A DNA stretch of 36,445 bases, counting the filler, from an uncultured virus (IMG/VR IMGVR_UViG_2049941000_000903) (taxonomy: Duplodnaviria; Heunggongvirae; Uroviricota; Caudoviricetes). It is 2 parts of one record of this genome, joined end to end, with 100 filler letters (N's around TTAATTAATTAA, not from the genome) between each part and the next. Parts side by side here need not be neighbours in the genome. Positions count along the whole stretch, not along the records: positions 1 to 20,206 come from IMGVR_UViG_2049941000_000903; 1 more part is not named here. The stretch is one strand, 5' to 3'. The notes beneath the pieces are model-generated. The model saw nothing but the letters and a program-made list of their open reading frames with translations, searched no databases and had not been told where the DNA came from. Position 1 is the first letter of the stretch, and every line of letters starts with the position of its first letter. Position numbers and translations under genes: made by a program. Below, one piece after another: positions 9,732 through 19,199 of the stretch.

Positions 9732-11020
9732 CTATTTTCTTATTCTAACTCTAACTCCACCATCAACAGTCGTCCTTGTTATACTGGGAAAATGCTGTTC
9801 GTTATATTTTGGTTTGCCAAGCTTCCTGTTGGCGAATTCCGTTATTGATTGCTTCCTGTCCATCTGACCGCCCTTTTCCGCAGCATTGACTACGCCTTTC
9901 CTGTTCTGGTAATCTCCAATACGCTCGTGCGCCGCTTGGAAATTCATATTTGAAGTAGCCTGTGCAATAGTCGCCTGTGCCTCGAGCGCATCCTGCTTTC
10001 TCTGGGCTTTTCTATTCCCAGCGANNNNNNNNNNTGTGCGTGAGGATAAAGTACTCACGAAAAGGGGGCAGGCAGAATTACTCAGGAGAAAGCAGTTGCT
10101 GCAGGAAATGTACGAAAACAAGGTTTCCAATGCAGAGCAACTGGGAGAAAGGCTCGCATCCATAGTATATGGTCTGAACTTTCCGCTGCTTACGTTTTCA
10201 AATACTGTTGAGTTTGCCAAGATATTCTCTGGCGGNNNNNNNNNNAAGAATGCTGTTCGCTATATTTTGGTTTGCCAAGTTTCCTGTTGGCGAATTCCGT
10301 TATTGACTGCTTCCTGTCCATCTGACCGCCATTTTCCGCAGCGTTGACTACACCTTTCCTGTTCTGGTAATCTCCGATACGCTCGTGCGCCGCCTGGAAA
10401 TTCATATTTGAAGTAGCCTGTGCAATAGTCGTCTGTGCCTCGAGCGCATCCTGCTTTCTCTGGGCTTTTCTATTCCCAGCGATAACTCCGATTCCACTTC
10501 CCAGCAATCCTGCAACTCCACCAACTGCTGCTCCGATAGGACCGCCAATCTGCAATCCTGCCGTCGCTCCCTGCAGAGTACTGGAAACGATGTTACCTGC
10601 CTTCTCTCCATTTGACATACCACGGATATCCTTATACGTCGGCATCGGTGCGAGATAATTCTGCGACATGTCATTGGCGAGTTGTTCATAGTTCACATAG
10701 TTATAGTTACCGAAATCAGCGTAATCATCGAGAGCGTTCTCATAAGCGGATGTATCCCCTATCTGCGCCGCTTGCATTGCATTACCGGCGATACCGGTAG
10801 CAGCAGATAACCCCGCTATACCCATACCGGCAAGTGCGGTTGATGCCTGCCCTTTAAGACCTGCGGATACAAGATTGTAGTTGTTGTCCTTCACTATGCC
10901 ATCATACAACTTATCAAGACCGCCAAGCCTCTGCCTAGCGTTCCTGTAGTCGTTGAGCAGGATATTGCGCCCGTATGTGCCGTATCCGGCTAATCCTTCT
11001 GAAATATCACCCAACTTCAT
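9732..11020 (-). CDS. Cargo protein C1-like, N-terminal membrane module (C1a), about 276 aa
   Basis: 10246..11020 overlaps 9732..10024 (GNRKAQRKQ...). Has a glycine-zipper hydrophobic segment GATAGLQIGGPIGAAVGGVAGLLGSGIGVIAG and motifs AQIGDTS and KDIRG as recalled for the gp45 N-terminus. Directly follows the muzzle stop. Confidence 0.8.
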
Positions 11021-11074
11021 ACTACTCGAAATATTTAATAACTATGTCGTGAAGCTGCATCATANNNNNNNNNN

Positions 11075-11485
11075 GTTTGACATACCACGGATATCCTCAT
11101 ACGTCGGCATCGGTGCAAGATAATTCTGCGACATGTCATTGGCAAGTTGGTCATAGTTCACATAGTTATAATTACCGAAATCAGCGTAATCAGCAAGAGC
11201 GTTCTCATAAGCGGACGTATCTCCTATCTGCGCCGCTTGCATTGCATTACCGGCGATACCGGTAGCGGCAGACAATCCCGCTGTTCCCATACCGGCAAGT
11301 GCGGTTGATGCCTGTCCTTTAAGACCTGCGGATACAAGATTGTAGTTGTTGTCCTTTACTACGCCATCATACAACTTATCAAGACCGCCAAGCCTCTGCC
11401 TGGCGTTCCTGTAGTCGTTGAGCAGGATATTACGCCCGTATGTGCCGTATCCGGCTAATCCTTTTGATATATCCTCAAGCTTCAT
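11075..11485 (-). CDS. Second allele of C1a, N-terminal part
   Basis: MKLEDISKG versus MKLGDISEG. Preceded by the same muzzle 3' end. Confidence 0.8.
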
Positions 11486-11486
11486 A

Positions 11487-13990
11487 CTACTCGAAATATT
11501 TAATAACTATGTCGTGAAGCTGCATCATAAACTTGTCGTCATCCATGTGCTTGCGGAATTCTATATTCGTCCAGGGATTACGCATCCTGTCAAGACCGTT
11601 CCTGTTCGTATCATTCTTCACGGCACGGGGAATTGTAAGTCTCCATATCCTGAACTTCTTCCTCACGGGGTCAGTGAATGCATCGTCTCTACGAAGCGGG
11701 ACATCACCAGTTGTCTGGTACTCGTTCCATAACTTGTATGTGGTAAATGTCTCATCCTCCTTGTAGGCATCGTTAATGAAGCCATACCTGTCAGCGGTAA
11801 TAAGTTCATCCTCCTTGTTGAGCAATGAACCATCTGCTCCGAGAGTCCTGTAGAAGTCGGCACGGTACTCTACATTCGTCCATATCTTATCTCCGTATGG
11901 ATCTGGCGTAACCCTATAAGTCGTCCAGAAGTCGAAACTGTCACCGAAGAAATTGCAGTACGTTCCCTCATTCTGAAGCCAGAGATTATTGTCACGGAAA
12001 GACACGAGCCTATCCTCAACATTGGTAATCATCGGGACCTTCTTGTAATCGAAGAAACTGGTGAAGGTTCCAAGGTTCTCATTGAACACAAGGCACGGCT
12101 CGTCGTCAGCAGAGTTCTTTACCAGATACACGTCAGAGTTAATCCTGTCGTAGAAAGAAACTATACTGTTCGACTCAGTGTTCTTGAATTCCTGCGGCGT
12201 CCATACTTTCAACGTGTTCGCCCTGTTGAACCACACGTCGAAACCAAGGCGGGATGACAGACTTTCCACATTACCATTAAAGGCACAGAATGCCTTGTTG
12301 ATATTGTCAACGAAGTAAAGCGCAGACTTACCCTCAACGATAGACCATTTGTTTACGCATCCGAACTTGTTGCTGATGTATCTCTTGCCGTCAACCTTGC
12401 CGGAATTCGCAATCTCAACAGGGACACCATCTGTAGTCGTAAGTTGCGTGCGCGAGTTGAACAGGACTTCAGCTATGCCCCTGTCCTGGAAAGCGATGAT
12501 GCTGTTCTGGAATCTACGCAGGGCACGGCAACTACCCTTGTCGCCGTCAAGTTTCAAAGTATTGGCAAGGGTGATGTGACTCCACTCATCTATCTCTGCA
12601 GAGTCGTGTTTNNNNNNNNNNCGTGCGTGAGGATAAAGTACTCACGAAAAGGGGGCAGGCAGAATTGCTCAGGAGAAAGCAGTTGCTGCAGGAAATGTAC
12701 GAAAATAAGGTTTCCAATGCTGAGCAACTGGGAGAAAGGCTCGCATCCATAGTATATGGTCTGAACTTCCCACTGCTTACGTTTTCAAATACTGTTGAGT
12801 TTGCCAAGATATTCTCTGGCGGNNNNNNNNNNTCGCTGGGCAAAGTAGTTGTTCTGCTGCGAGTATACCGGATTTAGGCTACCATACTTTGACGTATCAA
12901 GAGATGCGAGATATCCCGTCTCCCTCTGNNNNNNNNNNAACACCATCGGTAGTCGTAAGTTGCGTGCGCGAGTTGAACAGGACTTCCGCTATTCCCCTGT
13001 CCTGGAAGGCGATGATGCTGTTCTGGAATCTACGCAGGGCACGGCAACTACCCTTGTCACCGTCAAGTTTCAAAGTGTTGGCAAGGGTGATGTGACTCCA
13101 CTCATCTATCTCTGCAGAGTCGTGTTTCTCCAAAGTCCACGTTATGTTTGCGCCATACACATCCTGATTGAAATCTTCGTCAAGATCNNNNNNNNNNNNN
13201 NNNNNATTATCTGTTCTCCCGTCAATATTGATATGGGTCTCAAGCATAACAGAGGTAATGTCAATCACTCCATTAGTCGCATCAGTCTTGTCCGCTGGCT
13301 TCGTCTTCAGACAATCCCATCTCTGGAAGTATGTATCACCCTGATTGGCATACATTACGTTCAGAGTGCTAAGTTGCGAAAGTGTATATAACGGACCGGC
13401 GGCTACGAACCTATTGTTCTCCACATTCCCGTATCTTGTATCGTTCTTGGAGAAGTCGTAGTATATTTCACCGATAAGAAGATACTTGTCTGTAGAATAT
13501 ACTCTATCAGAAAGCAAGCTTGGCATCAGCGTAAATCTCGTTTGATTTATACTGTAGGTAGAAGTTGCTTCTCCCTTTATCCAAGGGATTATCGGATTCT
13601 CTCTCAGCGTAACTGCATCTGAACCACCAGCGTTCAGGTAAGGAAGTATTGTCTGGCTATACTCATCTCCAGGCAACGTGAATACCGCATGCGGAGAAGA
13701 CAGATACTCAATCTGCACAGGGGCATCCAGATACAGGTAAGCCAAGTCACTAATATGTTCAGAACCTGTGTCTTGCAGTGACTTGCTGTAGAGTACCTTA
13801 TACTTATGGTTACCCGGAGGCATCAACGACTGCTTTATGTTAGCATCATAATAGCAAGTTTTGTCACCAACCTTCAGACCGACGTATTGACTTGATGTGT
13901 AGTTGTAACATCTTAATGAACCTGTGGGGATATCGTAAATCAGGTCTTCGCCCATATCGTAATTATATACCGTACAATACGAATACCTGA
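11487..13990 (-). CDS. Muzzle (tail stabilization) protein, C-terminal fragments
   Basis: Order 13207..13990, then 12833..12928 (QRETGYLASLDTSKYGSLNPVYSQQNNYFAQR), then 12939..13187, then 11487..12611. Ends KKFRIWRLTIPR...DRMRNPW...IKYFE, typical of crAss muzzle proteins. 13207..13990 overlaps the end of 27691..30426. Confidence 0.85.
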
Positions 13991-14001
13991 NNNNNNNNNN
14001 A

Positions 14002-14044
14002 GATTACAAGGCGTTTGCTTGGCTCTAAAGAAGATTTGTTATTT
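14002..14044 (-). repeat. 43-bp non-coding element, allele of 20901..20943
   Basis: Reverse complement matches 20901..20943 at 40/43 positions. Confidence 0.85.
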
Positions 14045-14067
14045 GTTTTAAGAGAGTTGCTTTACGC

Positions 14068-14655
14068 TTAGAAAGAAATGTTGAAACTCATCCCTGCCTT
14101 GACTACCGGGCCACGTTGCAGGAAATCATAGCCTACTCCTGCGGATACATCAAAGAGCCCCTTCCTGTATCCTACGTTGAACGTAACTGGCGCCATAGGA
14201 ACAGCGTCATACATAATCACCCCTTCAAGGGCAAAGTAATTGGTCTTTTGTGTAATCTTCTGCGGGACATATACTGTGTTGGTCACCGTCTTGTTATATG
14301 TCTCTATGTAGTCAAGGTTAGGCTCTACGCCGGATATCTTGGCAAAGTAATCCTCTGTCCTGTACTCCTTGGTGACACGCCCCATAAGGACGTAGTGTAC
14401 GCTGTCACGGTATATTATCTGCGGCTCAGGAATCTCAGGGTCTGTGTACACGGGAACGTATATCAATTTGTCAACGTACTCCGTGTCCACAACCGGGACC
14501 TCAACCTTGTTTGTGTCTATCTGTACCGTTGTGGTAGTGTCCATGTGGTCACGATACCACTTGTCCGTAATCTTCATGCCTCGGTTCTGCCCAAGAAAGA
14601 AAGAGCCGAGTATCGCGGCAATGACCGCCGCTATAAGTATCAGTTTCCACTTCAT
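14068..14655 (-). CDS. Spanin-like lysis protein (N-terminal TM helix, C-terminal beta-strands ending in Phe), allele 1
   Basis: ATGA overlap with the endolysin stop. N-terminal hydrophobic helix and alternating-pattern C-terminus. Confidence 0.65.
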   Translation of the reverse strand: MKWKLILIAAVIAAILGSFFLGQNRGMKITDKWYRDHMDTTTTVQIDTNKVEVPVVDTEYVDKLIYVPVYTDPEIPEPQIIYRDSVHYVLMGRVTKEYRTEDYFAKISGVEPNLDYIETYNKTVTNTVYVPQKITQKTNYFALEGVIMYDAVPMAPVTFNVGYRKGLFDVSAGVGYDFLQRGPVVKAGMSFNISF

Positions 14656-15110
14656 GCCGTGAACTCGTAGACTTTGTCGTTTATGCCGTAGGATTGTAGG
14701 AAATCAATGTGAACCCACGATGTTCCTTTCTCAAGCCGTATCTGTGTCGGGAACAGGCTTGCTTTCTCCTTTATCTTCTTCCTCGCCTGTTCCGCAGTCA
14801 TACCCTCAACGGTGAAGTCCCAGGCATTACCGAAACCGTGTTGTGTGAGGTATACGGTAGCCTTGCCTTTCACAAGGGCGCAGAGATTGCAACGGAGCCC
14901 TCTCTGCGTTATTCCCTTCTTGTAGTTGTTGAGGTACATAGGACGGCACAGGATTGCCTCACGGAGAAGCAGGAGTCCATACAGGGCATCTGTAGTGAAG
15001 AACTGCCAGGCACGCTCGTTGAACCTCTTGTATACGTCAGGGCATACAAGTTCCGTTATCTGGAAGTACTTCTTCAGAGACTTAATTATTGCGTCCTTTT
15101 CCGGCGTCAT
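14652..15110 (-). CDS. Endolysin, peptidase M15 family
   Basis: Zn-binding motifs TQHGFGNAWD (HxxGxAxD) and WVHID, plus RGLRC. Lies between holin and spanin-like gene. Confidence 0.85.
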   Translation of the reverse strand: MTPEKDAIIKSLKKYFQITELVCPDVYKRFNERAWQFFTTDALYGLLLLREAILCRPMYLNNYKKGITQRGLRCNLCALVKGKATVYLTQHGFGNAWDFTVEGMTAEQARKKIKEKASLFPTQIRLEKGTSWVHIDFLQSYGINDKVYEFTA

Positions 15111-15622
15111 GATTTCTTTACGAAGCGGCCTTTGGCATCACGGGGACGAGGGATAGGCTCTGTGAACTCGTTGGCATCTACCCCATCGACATCCAGATCG
15201 TGCTTCTTTCCGAAAGCGTGTATGATGGAGTTGAGGATATTCCCCCAGCGGAGTTTGACTCCCTTGGACTCAAAGTAATTACCAACAACGCTTGCAACCT
15301 CGTTTATTACGACTGCACCAAGTACTACTACCTCTATCCATCTGTATCCAAAAGCGAGAGTAGCCGTAGCAGCAAACGTGATCCAAGCTAAGTACTCAAG
15401 TGATTTGCCGAAAGTTCTCCTGAACGCCTTGCTGAATCTTATCCTGTCACCTCGGTATTTAGCCGCCTTTATTCCGAATATGAGGTCCAGAACGATAAGA
15501 GGGATGGCGACAATCATGAAAGGAACCATACTTATAACTGCTTCCCTAAAGAACACGACAGCCGTTGTAGCAATGCCACTTGACATTATCGCGGTTACAG
15601 TTGAGTTATCTGTCGTAGTCAT
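15107..15622 (-). CDS. Holin (phage holin 4-like)
   Basis: Several TM segments. LDLIFGIKAA..G..I..S...RRTFGK pattern and ExxSxxxN motif. ATGA-coupled to the endolysin. Confidence 0.8.
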   Translation of the reverse strand: MTTTDNSTVTAIMSSGIATTAVVFFREAVISMVPFMIVAIPLIVLDLIFGIKAAKYRGDRIRFSKAFRRTFGKSLEYLAWITFAATATLAFGYRWIEVVVLGAVVINEVASVVGNYFESKGVKLRWGNILNSIIHAFGKKHDLDVDGVDANEFTEPIPRPRDAKGRFVKKS

Positions 15623-15623
15623 C

Positions 15624-15812
15624 TTACAATAATATTACTATAATTGCTCCAACAGCCAGACCAACAACATCACAAATGACGTCATGCCACGAAGGCACTC
15701 CGCCGTGATACTTGTCCCACAGTTCTTTCCCTATACCAAAGATAAAAGAAATAACAAGCGATAGCCATAGGGGTAAGAGAACCGATATGGCTATAACAAG
15801 TAAAGCACTTAC
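15624..15812 (-). CDS. VanZ/YfiM-like small membrane protein, C-terminal part
   Basis: Manual translation VSALLVIAISVLLPLWLSLVISFIFGIGKELWDKYHGGVPSWHDVICDVVGLAVGAIIVILL*. Overlaps the N-terminal fragments at 19203..19297 and 20109..20206 (DGLLH...KE..D...D..D..G pattern). Confidence 0.7.
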   Translation of the reverse strand, partial: VSALLVIAISVLLPLWLSLVISFIFGIGKELWDKYHGGVPSWHDVICDVVGLAVGAIIVILL

Positions 15813-15843
15813 NNNNNNNNNNCTTTCTTCATATCATTGTCAA

Positions 15844-16431
15844 TTAAAAGTTAAACATAATCCTGATGTCCGACTTTACTACCGGATCGCGCTGAATGAA
15901 ATCATATCCTATACCGGCGGAAACATCCAGCAAACCTTTTCTGTATCCTACATTAAATGTAACTGGAGCCATAGGGATAATATCATACATCAATGTTCCT
16001 TCAAGGGCAAAGTAATTGGTCTTTGAAGTAATCTTCTGCGGAACATATACCGTGTTGGTCACCGTCTTGTTATATGTCTCTATGTAGTCAAGGTTAGGCT
16101 CCACGCCTGATATCTTGGCAAAGTAATCCTCTGTCCTGTACTCCTTGATGACACGCTCCATAAGGACGTAATGCACGCTGTCACGGTATATTATCTGCGG
16201 CTCAGGAATCTCGGGGTCTGTATACACGGGAATGTACACTGGCCTGTCAACGTACTCCGTGTCCGCAACCGGGACCTCAACCTTGTTGGTATCTATCTGT
16301 ACCGTTGTGGTAGTGTCCATGTGGTCACGATACCACTTATCCGTAATCTTCACACCACGGTTCTGTCCAAGGAAGAAAGAGCCGAGTATTGCAGCAATGA
16401 CTGCCGCTATAAGTATCAGTTTCCACTTCAT
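15844..16431 (-). CDS. Spanin-like lysis protein, allele 2
   Basis: Highly similar to 14068..14655, same length, different last residues (KSDIRIMFNF). Preceded by the endolysin 3' end. Confidence 0.65.
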   Translation of the reverse strand: MKWKLILIAAVIAAILGSFFLGQNRGVKITDKWYRDHMDTTTTVQIDTNKVEVPVADTEYVDRPVYIPVYTDPEIPEPQIIYRDSVHYVLMERVIKEYRTEDYFAKISGVEPNLDYIETYNKTVTNTVYVPQKITSKTNYFALEGTLMYDIIPMAPVTFNVGYRKGLLDVSAGIGYDFIQRDPVVKSDIRIMFNF

Positions 16432-17961: not shown

Positions 17962-17990
17962 GGGGGAGCCAATAACTCCCCCTTAATTTG
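17962..17990 (+). terminator. Intergenic hairpin (weak terminator or processing/stability element)
   Basis: GGGGGAG-ccaataa-CTCCCCC followed by TTAATTTG. Confidence 0.55.
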
Positions 17991-17996
17991 ATTTGT

Positions 17997-18497
17997 ATGG
18001 AACGTTTGGATTACTACGATATAATACCAGAAGGAATGGAGAGATACCTGTCTTACTACGGGCATCATTTCTCCAAGAAGATGTGCGAGTGGGCTGTGCG
18101 GAACATGGTGGATAGAAACGGCAAGCAACTGGTGATGGCTGACAAGGAAGCCGTTGATGATATGTTGAAGAAGCACGGTATCAAACTGGAGAACGACAAA
18201 GGATACGATGCCGTGTTCGTATATCACATGGGCAAGTCAGACTATCTCGGCAGTTCCATTGCCGGTGATGCTGCACTCTGCCAGTATGTAAAAGACGTNN
18301 NNNNNNNNTCTGTATTCGTATATCACATGGGCAAATCAGACTATCTAGGCAGTTCCATTGCCGGTGATGCTGCACTCTGCCAGTATGTAAAAGACGTGCT
18401 TGACGATAGGGATGGTTATGACGGGATTGCTTTCTCGAGGTTCATCGCTGACTGCAACGGTAAAGGTGTTCCCGTTATATGGGACAATATGCTATGA
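17997..18497 (+). CDS. Conserved Bacteroidales-phage hypothetical protein, about 133 aa after removing the duplicated overlap
   Basis: MERLDYYD...YLSYYGHHFSKKMCEWAV. A second allele of the start lies at 18875..19043. The internal repeat spans an N gap. Confidence 0.8.
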   Translation: MERLDYYDIIPEGMERYLSYYGHHFSKKMCEWAVRNMVDRNGKQLVMADKEAVDDMLKKHGIKLENDKGYDAVFVYHMGKSDYLGSSIAGDAALCQYVKDXXXXSVFVYHMGKSDYLGSSIAGDAALCQYVKDVLDDRDGYDGIAFSRFIADCNGKGVPVIWDNML

Positions 18498-18864
18498 TAG
18501 AGCGGGAGTTATACATAGGCAGGTGGCACGTTGATTTCCTGTTTGCAGACGATGGATACGATGATGAGTTGGTCCTTACCCGTCTGTATGACATTGACGC
18601 GCCGGTATATATAATGCGTGAGGTCAACGAGAATATGGAAAGCGGTGATATGAACACCGGCTTCACGTTTACCAATTCGGATTTGAAGGAAGCGCTTGTG
18701 GTTGTTGGCCCGTCATCGTCTGGTTCGGAGTTCCAGAGCACGTTTGCGCACGAAGCGTATCATCTCGCCGCAGCGATAGCCAGTTCTCTTGGCATTGAGT
18801 TGGACAGTGAGACCCCTGCGTACATAACAGGCGACCTTACACTGGAACTCATAGATGTTATATG
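18494..18864 (+). CDS. Zincin-like metallopeptidase (3' end in gap)
   Basis: HEAYH motif followed by ETPAY. ATGA overlap with the upstream gene. Confidence 0.7.
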
Positions 18865-19053
18865 NNNNNNNNNNAATTTGATTTGTATGGAACGTTTGGA
18901 TTACTATGATATAATACCTGAAGGAATGGAGAGATATCTGTCCTATTACGGGCATCATTTCTCCAAGAAGATGTGCGAATGGGCTGTACGGAATATGATA
19001 GACAGGAACGGCAAGCAACTGGTGATGGCTGACAAGGAAGCTGNNNNNNNNNN

Positions 19054-19199
19054 AGGGAGAAGTGGTGTTTGGTGGTGATATATCTTATTGTGACCTTAAT
19101 GATAAAATTTATACGCCTACCTATTATATAAGAAAGAATTATGCAGAGGAAGATGAAGATCCTACTTATACCTTTGCTATTATAGAGGACGCACAATAG
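19054..19199 (+). CDS. C-terminal fragment of an acidic protein, probably the end of the 19699 gene
   Basis: GEVVFGGDISYCDLNDKIY...IEDAQ*. AT-rich and directly upstream of the VanZ-like start at 19203. Confidence 0.5.

Follow-up and report, generated by a model that had tools for sequence, protein, structure and literature searches.

How can a phage complete the lysis of its host when the gene in the place of the spanin encodes no protein of a known spanin type? The question is raised by the gene at 14068..14655 on the minus strand of a stretch of 36,445 nucleotides (nt) from the uncultured virus IMGVR_UViG_2049941000_000903 (Caudoviricetes); this whole stretch is referred to as the window. 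The gene follows a holin gene and an endolysin-family gene and encodes a protein of 195 amino acids (aa) assigned to the Pfam family DUF6808 (PF20647). Our answer, which we put forward tentatively, is that the protein is the outer-membrane-disruption component of the lysis cassette, a single-chain spanin analogue that would work without lipid and without Cys. A role of the gene in lysis as such is well supported by its neighbourhood throughout the family.

The holin, endolysin-family and DUF6808 genes all lie within one gap-free piece, 14001..15812, of an assembly that consists of many short pieces joined by gaps of 10 N (44 N runs and a GC content of 47% in the window). The features in question are as follows.

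14068..14655, minus strand: DUF6808 gene, long form, allele 1, 195 aa (PF20647, 37.2 bits); candidate envelope-spanning lysis protein

14590..14652, minus strand: residues 2-22, N-terminal hydrophobic segment; putative inner-membrane signal-anchor, read from the sequence and a predicted helix

14251..14547, minus strand: residues 37-135, polar all-β stalk including the conserved core KEY..SG.P.LDYIETY, by predicted strands and invariant core residues

14071..14241, minus strand: residues 139-195, four amphipathic strands ending in Phe; putative outer-membrane barrel segment

14652..15110, minus strand: endolysin-family gene, 152 aa (phrog_894 'endolysin', E 2e-13)

15107..15622, minus strand: holin gene, 171 aa (PF05105 Phage_holin_4_1, 24.7 bits against a cut-off of 22.2)

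15844..16431, minus strand: DUF6808 gene, allele 2, on its own 630-bp scaffold piece, with a diverged C-terminal module

The three genes of the cassette are tightly packed. The ATG start codon of the DUF6808 gene overlaps the stop codon of the endolysin-family gene by 4 nt, and the latter in turn overlaps the holin gene by 4 nt. The identical order of holin, endolysin and DUF6808 gene is found on an uninterrupted contig in the relative L090 (85% identity). This is in good agreement with the initial annotation, which had placed the gene in the spanin slot after holin and endolysin. The 152-aa endolysin-family protein carries what we take to be an M15-like metallopeptidase motif; searches of Pfam and of PDB sequences returned no family and no meaningful match for it.

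The linkage to wall hydrolases extends over the family. We collected 170 loci from viral contigs, metagenome contigs, phage records and the window, 163 of which carry an open reading frame (ORF) of the family. At 60% identity these fall into 13 clusters, two of fragments and 11 of full-length proteins, and one representative set was examined. In 10 of the 11 full-length groups a peptidoglycan hydrolase is located directly upstream of the DUF6808 gene or one gene away, and these hydrolases are of seven unrelated kinds.

GH108 with PG_binding_3 (Pfam): L123 and L168

Peptidase_M23 (Pfam): L094

Amidase_3 (Pfam): L082 (phage BS-TP4)

GH19 (Pfam): L002

Peptidase_M15_3 (Pfam): L165 and L005

phrog_894 (PHROGs): the window and L090

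phrog_873 type: L003 (PHROGs) and, by the common start PRGLRN[NA]NPGNIR, L052, L081, L145 and L161

A PF05105 holin precedes the hydrolase in the window, L090, L123 and L052. As a rule the DUF6808 gene closes the block, and it often overlaps its upstream neighbour by 4 nt. Since linkage to so many unrelated wall hydrolases is the classic signature of an accessory gene of lysis, the neighbourhood points to such a role.

With respect to family membership, the window protein scores 37.2 bits against PF20647, for which the gathering cut-off is 24.4, and allele 2 scores 35.2 bits. The match covers residues 85-139, corresponding to profile positions 2-56 of 86, and thus ends before the two-strand hairpin at the C-terminal end of the profile; short-form members match positions 1-86 or 3-86 at 86-99 bits. 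PF20647 was matched by every sequence scanned, 78 of the long form and 40 of the short form. Judged by these matches, the 195-aa protein is a four-strand variant of DUF6808. The short form (approximately 150-170 aa) ends in a single Gly- and aromatic-rich hairpin with the consensus RWGxGxQxGYG ... PYIGxGxxYN, and the long form (approximately 180-200 aa), which includes the window protein, ends in four strands. In both forms conservation is highest in the core KEY..Y.A.VSG..P.LD.IE.Y.

When 1.84 billion representatives were searched with a profile built from 21 close relatives, 837 proteins (clusters at 50% identity) matched at E 1e-3 or better, 87 of them at 1e-10 or better. The best 150 of the 837 matches range from 49 to 225 aa, in a search that was not aimed at longer fused forms. 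The close relatives are all approximately 195 aa long and occur on contigs of up to approximately 101 kilobases (kb); in the ESM Atlas, the nearest clusters bear a viral label. Only 27 new proteins were added when homologues were searched again with a profile of 78 sequences. By tblastn, the 195-aa protein has no match among 50,697 phage records, of which eight were matched by a short-form query, and two scans of genome contigs returned no relatives. Cultured Bacteroides phages with family members are BF1-TP2, BS-TP4, BS-TP1, BKO1-TP3 and csAssE-Sib; the gene is annotated as hypothetical in such phages and adjoins annotated endolysins in BF1-TP2 of B. fragilis BL19, where it is gp45, and in BS-TP4 of B. 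salyersiae BG8, where it is gp22. No member was detected in B124-14 and crAss001 at E up to 0.01, thus DUF6808 is not the sole solution in Bacteroides phages. A full-text literature search found no paper naming DUF6808.

The AlphaFold2 model of the long form, built from 78 sequences, has a predicted local distance difference test score (pLDDT) of 86.4 and a predicted template modelling score (pTM) of 0.41. It consists of a helix at residues 2-36 (pLDDT 86-94), stalk strands at 39-52, 58-70, 86-99, 104-109 and 116-129, and a C-terminal meander of four strands at 139-154, 156-165, 168-177 and 182-191. The latter coincide with the four segments that had been singled out beforehand as amphipathic strands with a terminal Phe. 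In the short-form model (40 sequences, pLDDT 84.7), a helix at 5-31 is followed by a very long hairpin (57-74/77-95) and a C-terminal hairpin (130-141/144-155). Foldseek found nothing in the PDB at E 1e-3 or better for either model. VIA-align (wide) aligned only residues 136-195 of the long form, at Z 4-5.5. OprF, OmpA, PagL, OmpW and the Hia/AtaA anchors match this segment at Z 4.3-5.2, within the noise range of the tool, as are further matches to CarO and to designed transmembrane (TM) barrels. The best Z of the short form is 3.0. Judged by the low pTM and the confinement of matches to 136-195, the sheet is not packed onto the rest of the chain in the monomer model.

As modelled, the four-strand meander is of a kind that would fit any barrel. 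Such a barrel must be oligomeric, because four or two strands cannot close one alone. Due to their common conserved core, we suspect that the short and long forms share an oligomer number; if they do, the two strands per short-form chain imply at least four subunits.

The evidence for an outer-membrane location comes from the C-terminal strands. In the 78 long-form sequences they follow a strict dyad alternation, with one face 85-92% hydrophobic and the opposite face 6-33% hydrophobic with 12-32% Gly. The non-hydrophobic face bears conserved acidic (column 177, 97% D/E) and basic (column 190) residues. Aromatic residues are common at the strand ends (columns 149, 161, 168, 176 and 195), the last column being 95% aromatic. 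The stalk strands are 27-67% hydrophobic on either face and have no one-sided face. The initial annotation had called the stalk Thr/Val/Pro-rich, which is roughly right for residues 37-135 (V 15%, T 14%, P 7%), except that Tyr (10%) exceeds Pro. Exactly at the C-terminus, 137 of the 179 full-length members have an aromatic residue (F in 79, W in 56, Y in 2), and in 12 more the last aromatic is one residue from the end; among 1163 other ORFs of at least 100 aa from the same loci, 85 end in F, W or Y (7.3%). These strand features are, by their sequence pattern, typical of substrates of the β-barrel assembly machinery (BAM), and the earlier impression of strands resembling those of outer-membrane proteins (OMPs) is thereby strengthened. 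The aromatic-ended terminal strand resembles the β-signal of BAM substrates. Below threshold, short-form sequences match the Pfam families OMP_b-brl (9 of 40), OmpW (4 of 40), OMP_b-brl_2 (2 of 40), Pom (2 of 40) and Autotransporter (1 of 40); for the window protein, Pfam at E up to 5 gave no OMP family and no YadA_anchor.

Covariation by mutual information with average product correction (MI-APC) was computed on 111 long-form sequences (effective number 92). The top couplings form three intramolecular hairpin registers (i+j = 302, 333 and 359; diagonal means 0.050-0.076), and the method thus has some power on this alignment.

The second allele shows how the tail varies. Both alleles share 87% identity, with 25 of 195 residues differing, eight of them consecutively (187-194). 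Nucleotide identity is 88-95% in the first 420 nt and 68-74% in the last 168 nt, the divergent parts being 14068-14235 and 15844-16011. Because of this drop we regard the tail as a mosaic module, which seems to be exchanged between strains with its pattern retained. Along this line, the last strand of allele 2 is altered yet keeps its alternation and terminal Phe, as had been pointed out from the outset, and the same variant strand occurs in the relatives P0020 and L090.

Neither allele contains a single Cys, and only 7 of 179 family members carry a lipobox-like motif; the absence of a lipobox Cys, claimed for the window protein, therefore holds for most of the family. As to a separate o-spanin, none of 12 sites (11 loci, including the window) gave a match in a strict lipobox scan over 1.5 kb. 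A relaxed scan over 2.5 kb, in all frames and with all start codons on the strand of the gene, detected no conserved lipoprotein ORF at 17 sites; the window and 15 of the 16 others gave no candidate at all. The only site with candidates is L123, which has a 412-aa lipoprotein approximately 460 nt downstream and a weak 58-aa ORF. As a control, the relaxed routine recovers the annotated lipoprotein B40-8013 of phage B40-8, approximately 1 kb beyond the putative peptidase block. Its position would agree with the separated spanin pair mentioned for B40-8 by Kongari et al. (PMC6139136). Two gap-free relatives, L090 (85% identity, 193 nt available) and L001 (63% identity, 2.5 kb), are without a downstream lipoprotein ORF. 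The scans at both distances are in accordance with the initial statement that no embedded or downstream o-spanin ORF is visible, and the neighbourhood survey proposed at that time reveals, L123 excepted, homologues without a consistently adjacent lipoprotein.

Some further genes in and around the cassettes deserve mention. In the window, a small hydrophobic ORF directly upstream of the holin gene (15630-15812, minus strand) is cut by the gap at 15813, and in L090 the holin gene is preceded by two ORFs for membrane proteins, of 148 and 107 aa. In many related cassettes (L003 3224-3571, L145 3241-3624, L082 2038-2397, L002 2834-3373, L094 2500-3009 and L161 3954-4577) the slot before the endolysin is occupied by a protein with a TM segment and a coiled-coil-like region. 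These proteins have one N-terminal hydrophobic segment, a long charged region and C-terminal Cys residues, and belong to phrog_32423, phrog_38864 or no family. They alternate with multi-TM holins of the PF05105 type and could be holins of another class or i-spanin-like partners. A gene inserted between endolysin and DUF6808 gene encodes crAss001_48 and Tad2-like (Thoeris anti-defence 2) domains in L145 (4170-4874), and crAss001_48 only, annotated as DUF2829, in BF1-TP2 (L081 2606-3004). DUF6527 proteins directly adjoin the DUF6808 gene in two unrelated groups (L094 4525-4869 and L168 5408-5737), upstream in one and downstream in the other. Finally, L005 3561-4004 encodes a 147-aa membrane protein with a match to the protease-type phrog_15610 between the M15 endolysin and the DUF6808 gene.

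From these data we infer membrane locations, oligomeric state, BAM dependence and mode of action as follows. The protein would accumulate during late expression, its N-terminal helix serving as a type II signal-anchor that remains in the inner membrane. Approximately 100 residues of polar β-hairpins would span the periplasm through the peptidoglycan mesh. The host BAM would recognize the aromatic-ended strands as β-signals and insert the amphipathic strands into the outer membrane, within a homo-oligomeric β-barrel to which each chain would contribute four strands in the long form and two in the short form. Once the endolysin has removed the wall, the tethers would be free to cluster or refold, and the outer membrane would be breached or fused, as proposed for spanins. 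Going one step further, and with more reserve than for the spanin analogue itself, we raise the possibility that DUF6808, taken as a family widespread in phages of Bacteroidota including those with crAss-size genomes, constitutes a third structural class of spanins: a single all-β chain with neither lipid nor disulfide, an N-terminal inner-membrane helix and a BAM-assembled homo-oligomeric barrel of two or four strands per subunit.

Several observations weigh against this reading. We know of no precedent for a chain that combines a helix in the inner membrane with a barrel assembled by BAM. In some members, small residues occupy positions -1 and -3, which is compatible with cleavage. No Pfam OMP family reaches its cut-off, the best short-form matches being at E 0.0026-0.09. 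Soluble colicin-M-type domains match the tail equally well (Z 5.3-5.5), and values of Z up to 5.5 are noise for this tool. In the MI-APC analysis, the best diagonal between strands 1 and 4 has a mean of 0.033, compared with 0.040 and 0.025 for non-adjacent controls. An amphipathic sheet would be just as compatible with burial in a soluble oligomer. In the group of L163, an HNH endonuclease gene is located upstream instead of a hydrolase gene, at a contig end. The scaffold gap at 13991..14000, which begins 68 nt past the stop codon of the DUF6808 gene and whose 10 N need not reflect its real length, could hide a gene. BF1-TP2, BS-TP4 and the provirus G001 each hold at least one plausible lipoprotein ORF of 193-478 aa at a distance of 11-20 kb from the cassette; a distant o-spanin in genomes that carry a family member is unlikely in our view.

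These points lend themselves to other explanations. The first retains the OMP-like tail and differs at the N-terminus: a Sec signal peptide would be cleaved, and the mature protein would be an oligomeric barrel in the outer membrane only, with a periplasmic β-domain. Acting alone, it would perforate or weaken the outer membrane; otherwise it would represent an 'OMP-type o-spanin' with an inner-membrane partner. We consider this unlikely. Ordinary OMPs have cleaved signals, and the small residues mentioned above precede a conserved G-x-x-x-G in some members. The uncharged N-terminal segment, with a median of 18 residues and at least 18 in 127 of 179 members, is long for a signal peptide. It is directly followed by the G-x-x-x-G motif with basic residues, the predicted helix extends as far as residue 36, and the N-flank is more positively charged than the C-flank in 141 of 205 members. 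Because of segment length, helix and charge bias, the N-terminus would suit a type II signal-anchor more than a signal peptide that is cleaved off. With respect to a partner, the proteins with a TM segment and a coiled coil upstream of the endolysin in L003, L082 and L002 could be i-spanins; they occupy the holin slot, though, and match only PHROGs without assigned function. In the window and in L090 the holin belongs to PF05105 and such a protein is missing, so that no partner is visible there. That an OMP might take the part of an o-spanin was raised by Kongari et al. 2018 (PMC6139136), who remark by way of speculation that 'an OMP could act as an o-spanin'.

A second explanation accepts the inner-membrane anchor and leaves the C-terminal sheet in the periplasm, buried in a soluble homo-oligomer or on a partner. 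Such a factor could possibly regulate endolysin or holin, bind the wall or serve another accessory step of lysis. Dyad alternation also suits a buried sheet face, and the missing OMP family and the Z values of colicin-M-like domains are in line with a soluble fold. Covariation gave no signal between strands 1 and 4 above that of the controls. It leaves unexplained, however, that 77% of the members end exactly in an aromatic residue, and it accounts neither for the aromatics at the strand ends nor for the Gly-rich non-hydrophobic face, which would be unusual on a solvent-exposed sheet. Furthermore, AlphaFold2 left the sheet unpacked against the rest of the chain. As a whole, this explanation is improbable to a similar degree as the preceding one.

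We see only a slight chance for a third explanation, in which the tail mimics a β-signal and docks by β-augmentation on host BamA or another OMP, thereby tethering the membranes or jamming BAM. The likeness of the terminal strand to β-signals would follow directly, and the one hairpin of the short form is too little for a barrel unless many copies join. A docking strand, however, would need far less than the conserved amphipathic pattern over several strands with its full hydrophobic belt. Finally, it is very improbable that the gene is a moron or a surface protein, e.g., for superinfection exclusion, at the end of a late operon: a module boundary often follows it directly and temperate Bacteroides phages carry it, but in 10 of the 11 groups it is linked, with codon overlap, to hydrolases of seven unrelated kinds, and the hydrolase-linked members include phages on contigs of approximately 100 kb.

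Outside the cassette, the window encodes structural phage proteins, namely a major head protein (phrog_11589) and virion structural proteins (phrog_28748). Near-duplicate pieces lie in tandem across 10-N joins (10190-11020 and 11060-11485, 11487-12557 and 12897-13955, 17988-18497 and 18479-19078). They look like strain variants scaffolded side by side, and gene order across the joins is consequently unreliable.

If the tethered oligomeric barrel is true, an outer-membrane-type tail would account for how many gut phages complete lysis without a lipid-anchored spanin of the usual kind. The spanin concept would be extended to a lipid-free anchor, so far only speculated about in print, and the protein would be the first known case of integration into both membranes of the diderm envelope, by a helix on one side and a barrel on the other. 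This would raise the question of how BAM assembles a barrel from chains that are still tethered to the inner membrane. The family is large, conserved and fixed to endolysin genes, and its function is testable, since cultured Bacteroides phages carry members. To our knowledge, lysis of Bacteroides by its phages has been little studied.

Several known systems invite comparison, some of them from Bacteroides phages. The 'holin-lysin-spanin operon' of BV01 has a 177-aa gene named 'O-spanin' directly after the lysin, as the DUF6808 gene follows the endolysin (Campbell et al. 2020, PMC8354205). Compared with DUF6808 by description only, the 177-aa product differs in being a lipoprotein predicted by SignalP and in being followed by an 81-aa 'spanin'; the label rests on genetic architecture and SignalP (Table S1 of the same paper). 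A 'spanin' family in lysis cassettes of crAss-like phages, reported in a preprint by Borges et al. 2021, was likewise compared at the level of its description. According to Kongari et al., approximately 13% of the phages of Gram-negative hosts have no identifiable spanin, Bacteroides phage B124-14 among them (PMC6139136). Judged by title or abstract, none of the papers listed in our literature search describes a barrel-anchored spanin.

The trimeric autotransporter anchors of Hia and AtaA also have four amphipathic C-terminal strands per chain with an aromatic end, and match the tail at Z 4.3-5.0, i.e., in the noise range. The initial annotation had invoked this architecture. The number of strands per chain stands; beyond this the likeness is an analogy, since the strands of the DUF6808 protein are preceded by β-strands and a loop, with no barrel-filling helix, and the short form has two strands per chain.

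The λ pair Rz/Rz1 shares with the DUF6808 protein the same position in the cassette and a type II N-terminal segment, putative in the latter, and phrog_1026 'Rz-like spanin' gives a weak match (E 0.076) confined to the TM segment. In contrast to Rz/Rz1, the DUF6808 protein has no coiled coil, only strands being predicted after residue 37, no periplasmic Cys, and no embedded, overlapping or adjacent lipoprotein gene. The u-spanin gp11 of T1 has a β-rich periplasmic part, as predicted for the DUF6808 stalk. It is a single chain proposed to reach both membranes and is encoded by the last gene of a holin-endolysin cassette; its outer-membrane anchor is an N-terminal lipid on the lipobox Cys, and a C-terminal TM helix holds it in the inner membrane (Kongari et al. 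2018, PMC6139136). Its role in the third step of lysis is the one that we propose for the DUF6808 protein. The latter shows the reversed polarity, with an N-terminal helix and C-terminal strands, contains no Cys, and has no detected sequence similarity to gp11. Since lipobox, C-terminal TM segment, coiled coil, partner lipoprotein and Cys are all missing, the DUF6808 protein is a member neither of the u-spanins nor of the Rz-type i-spanins, though it may work like them.

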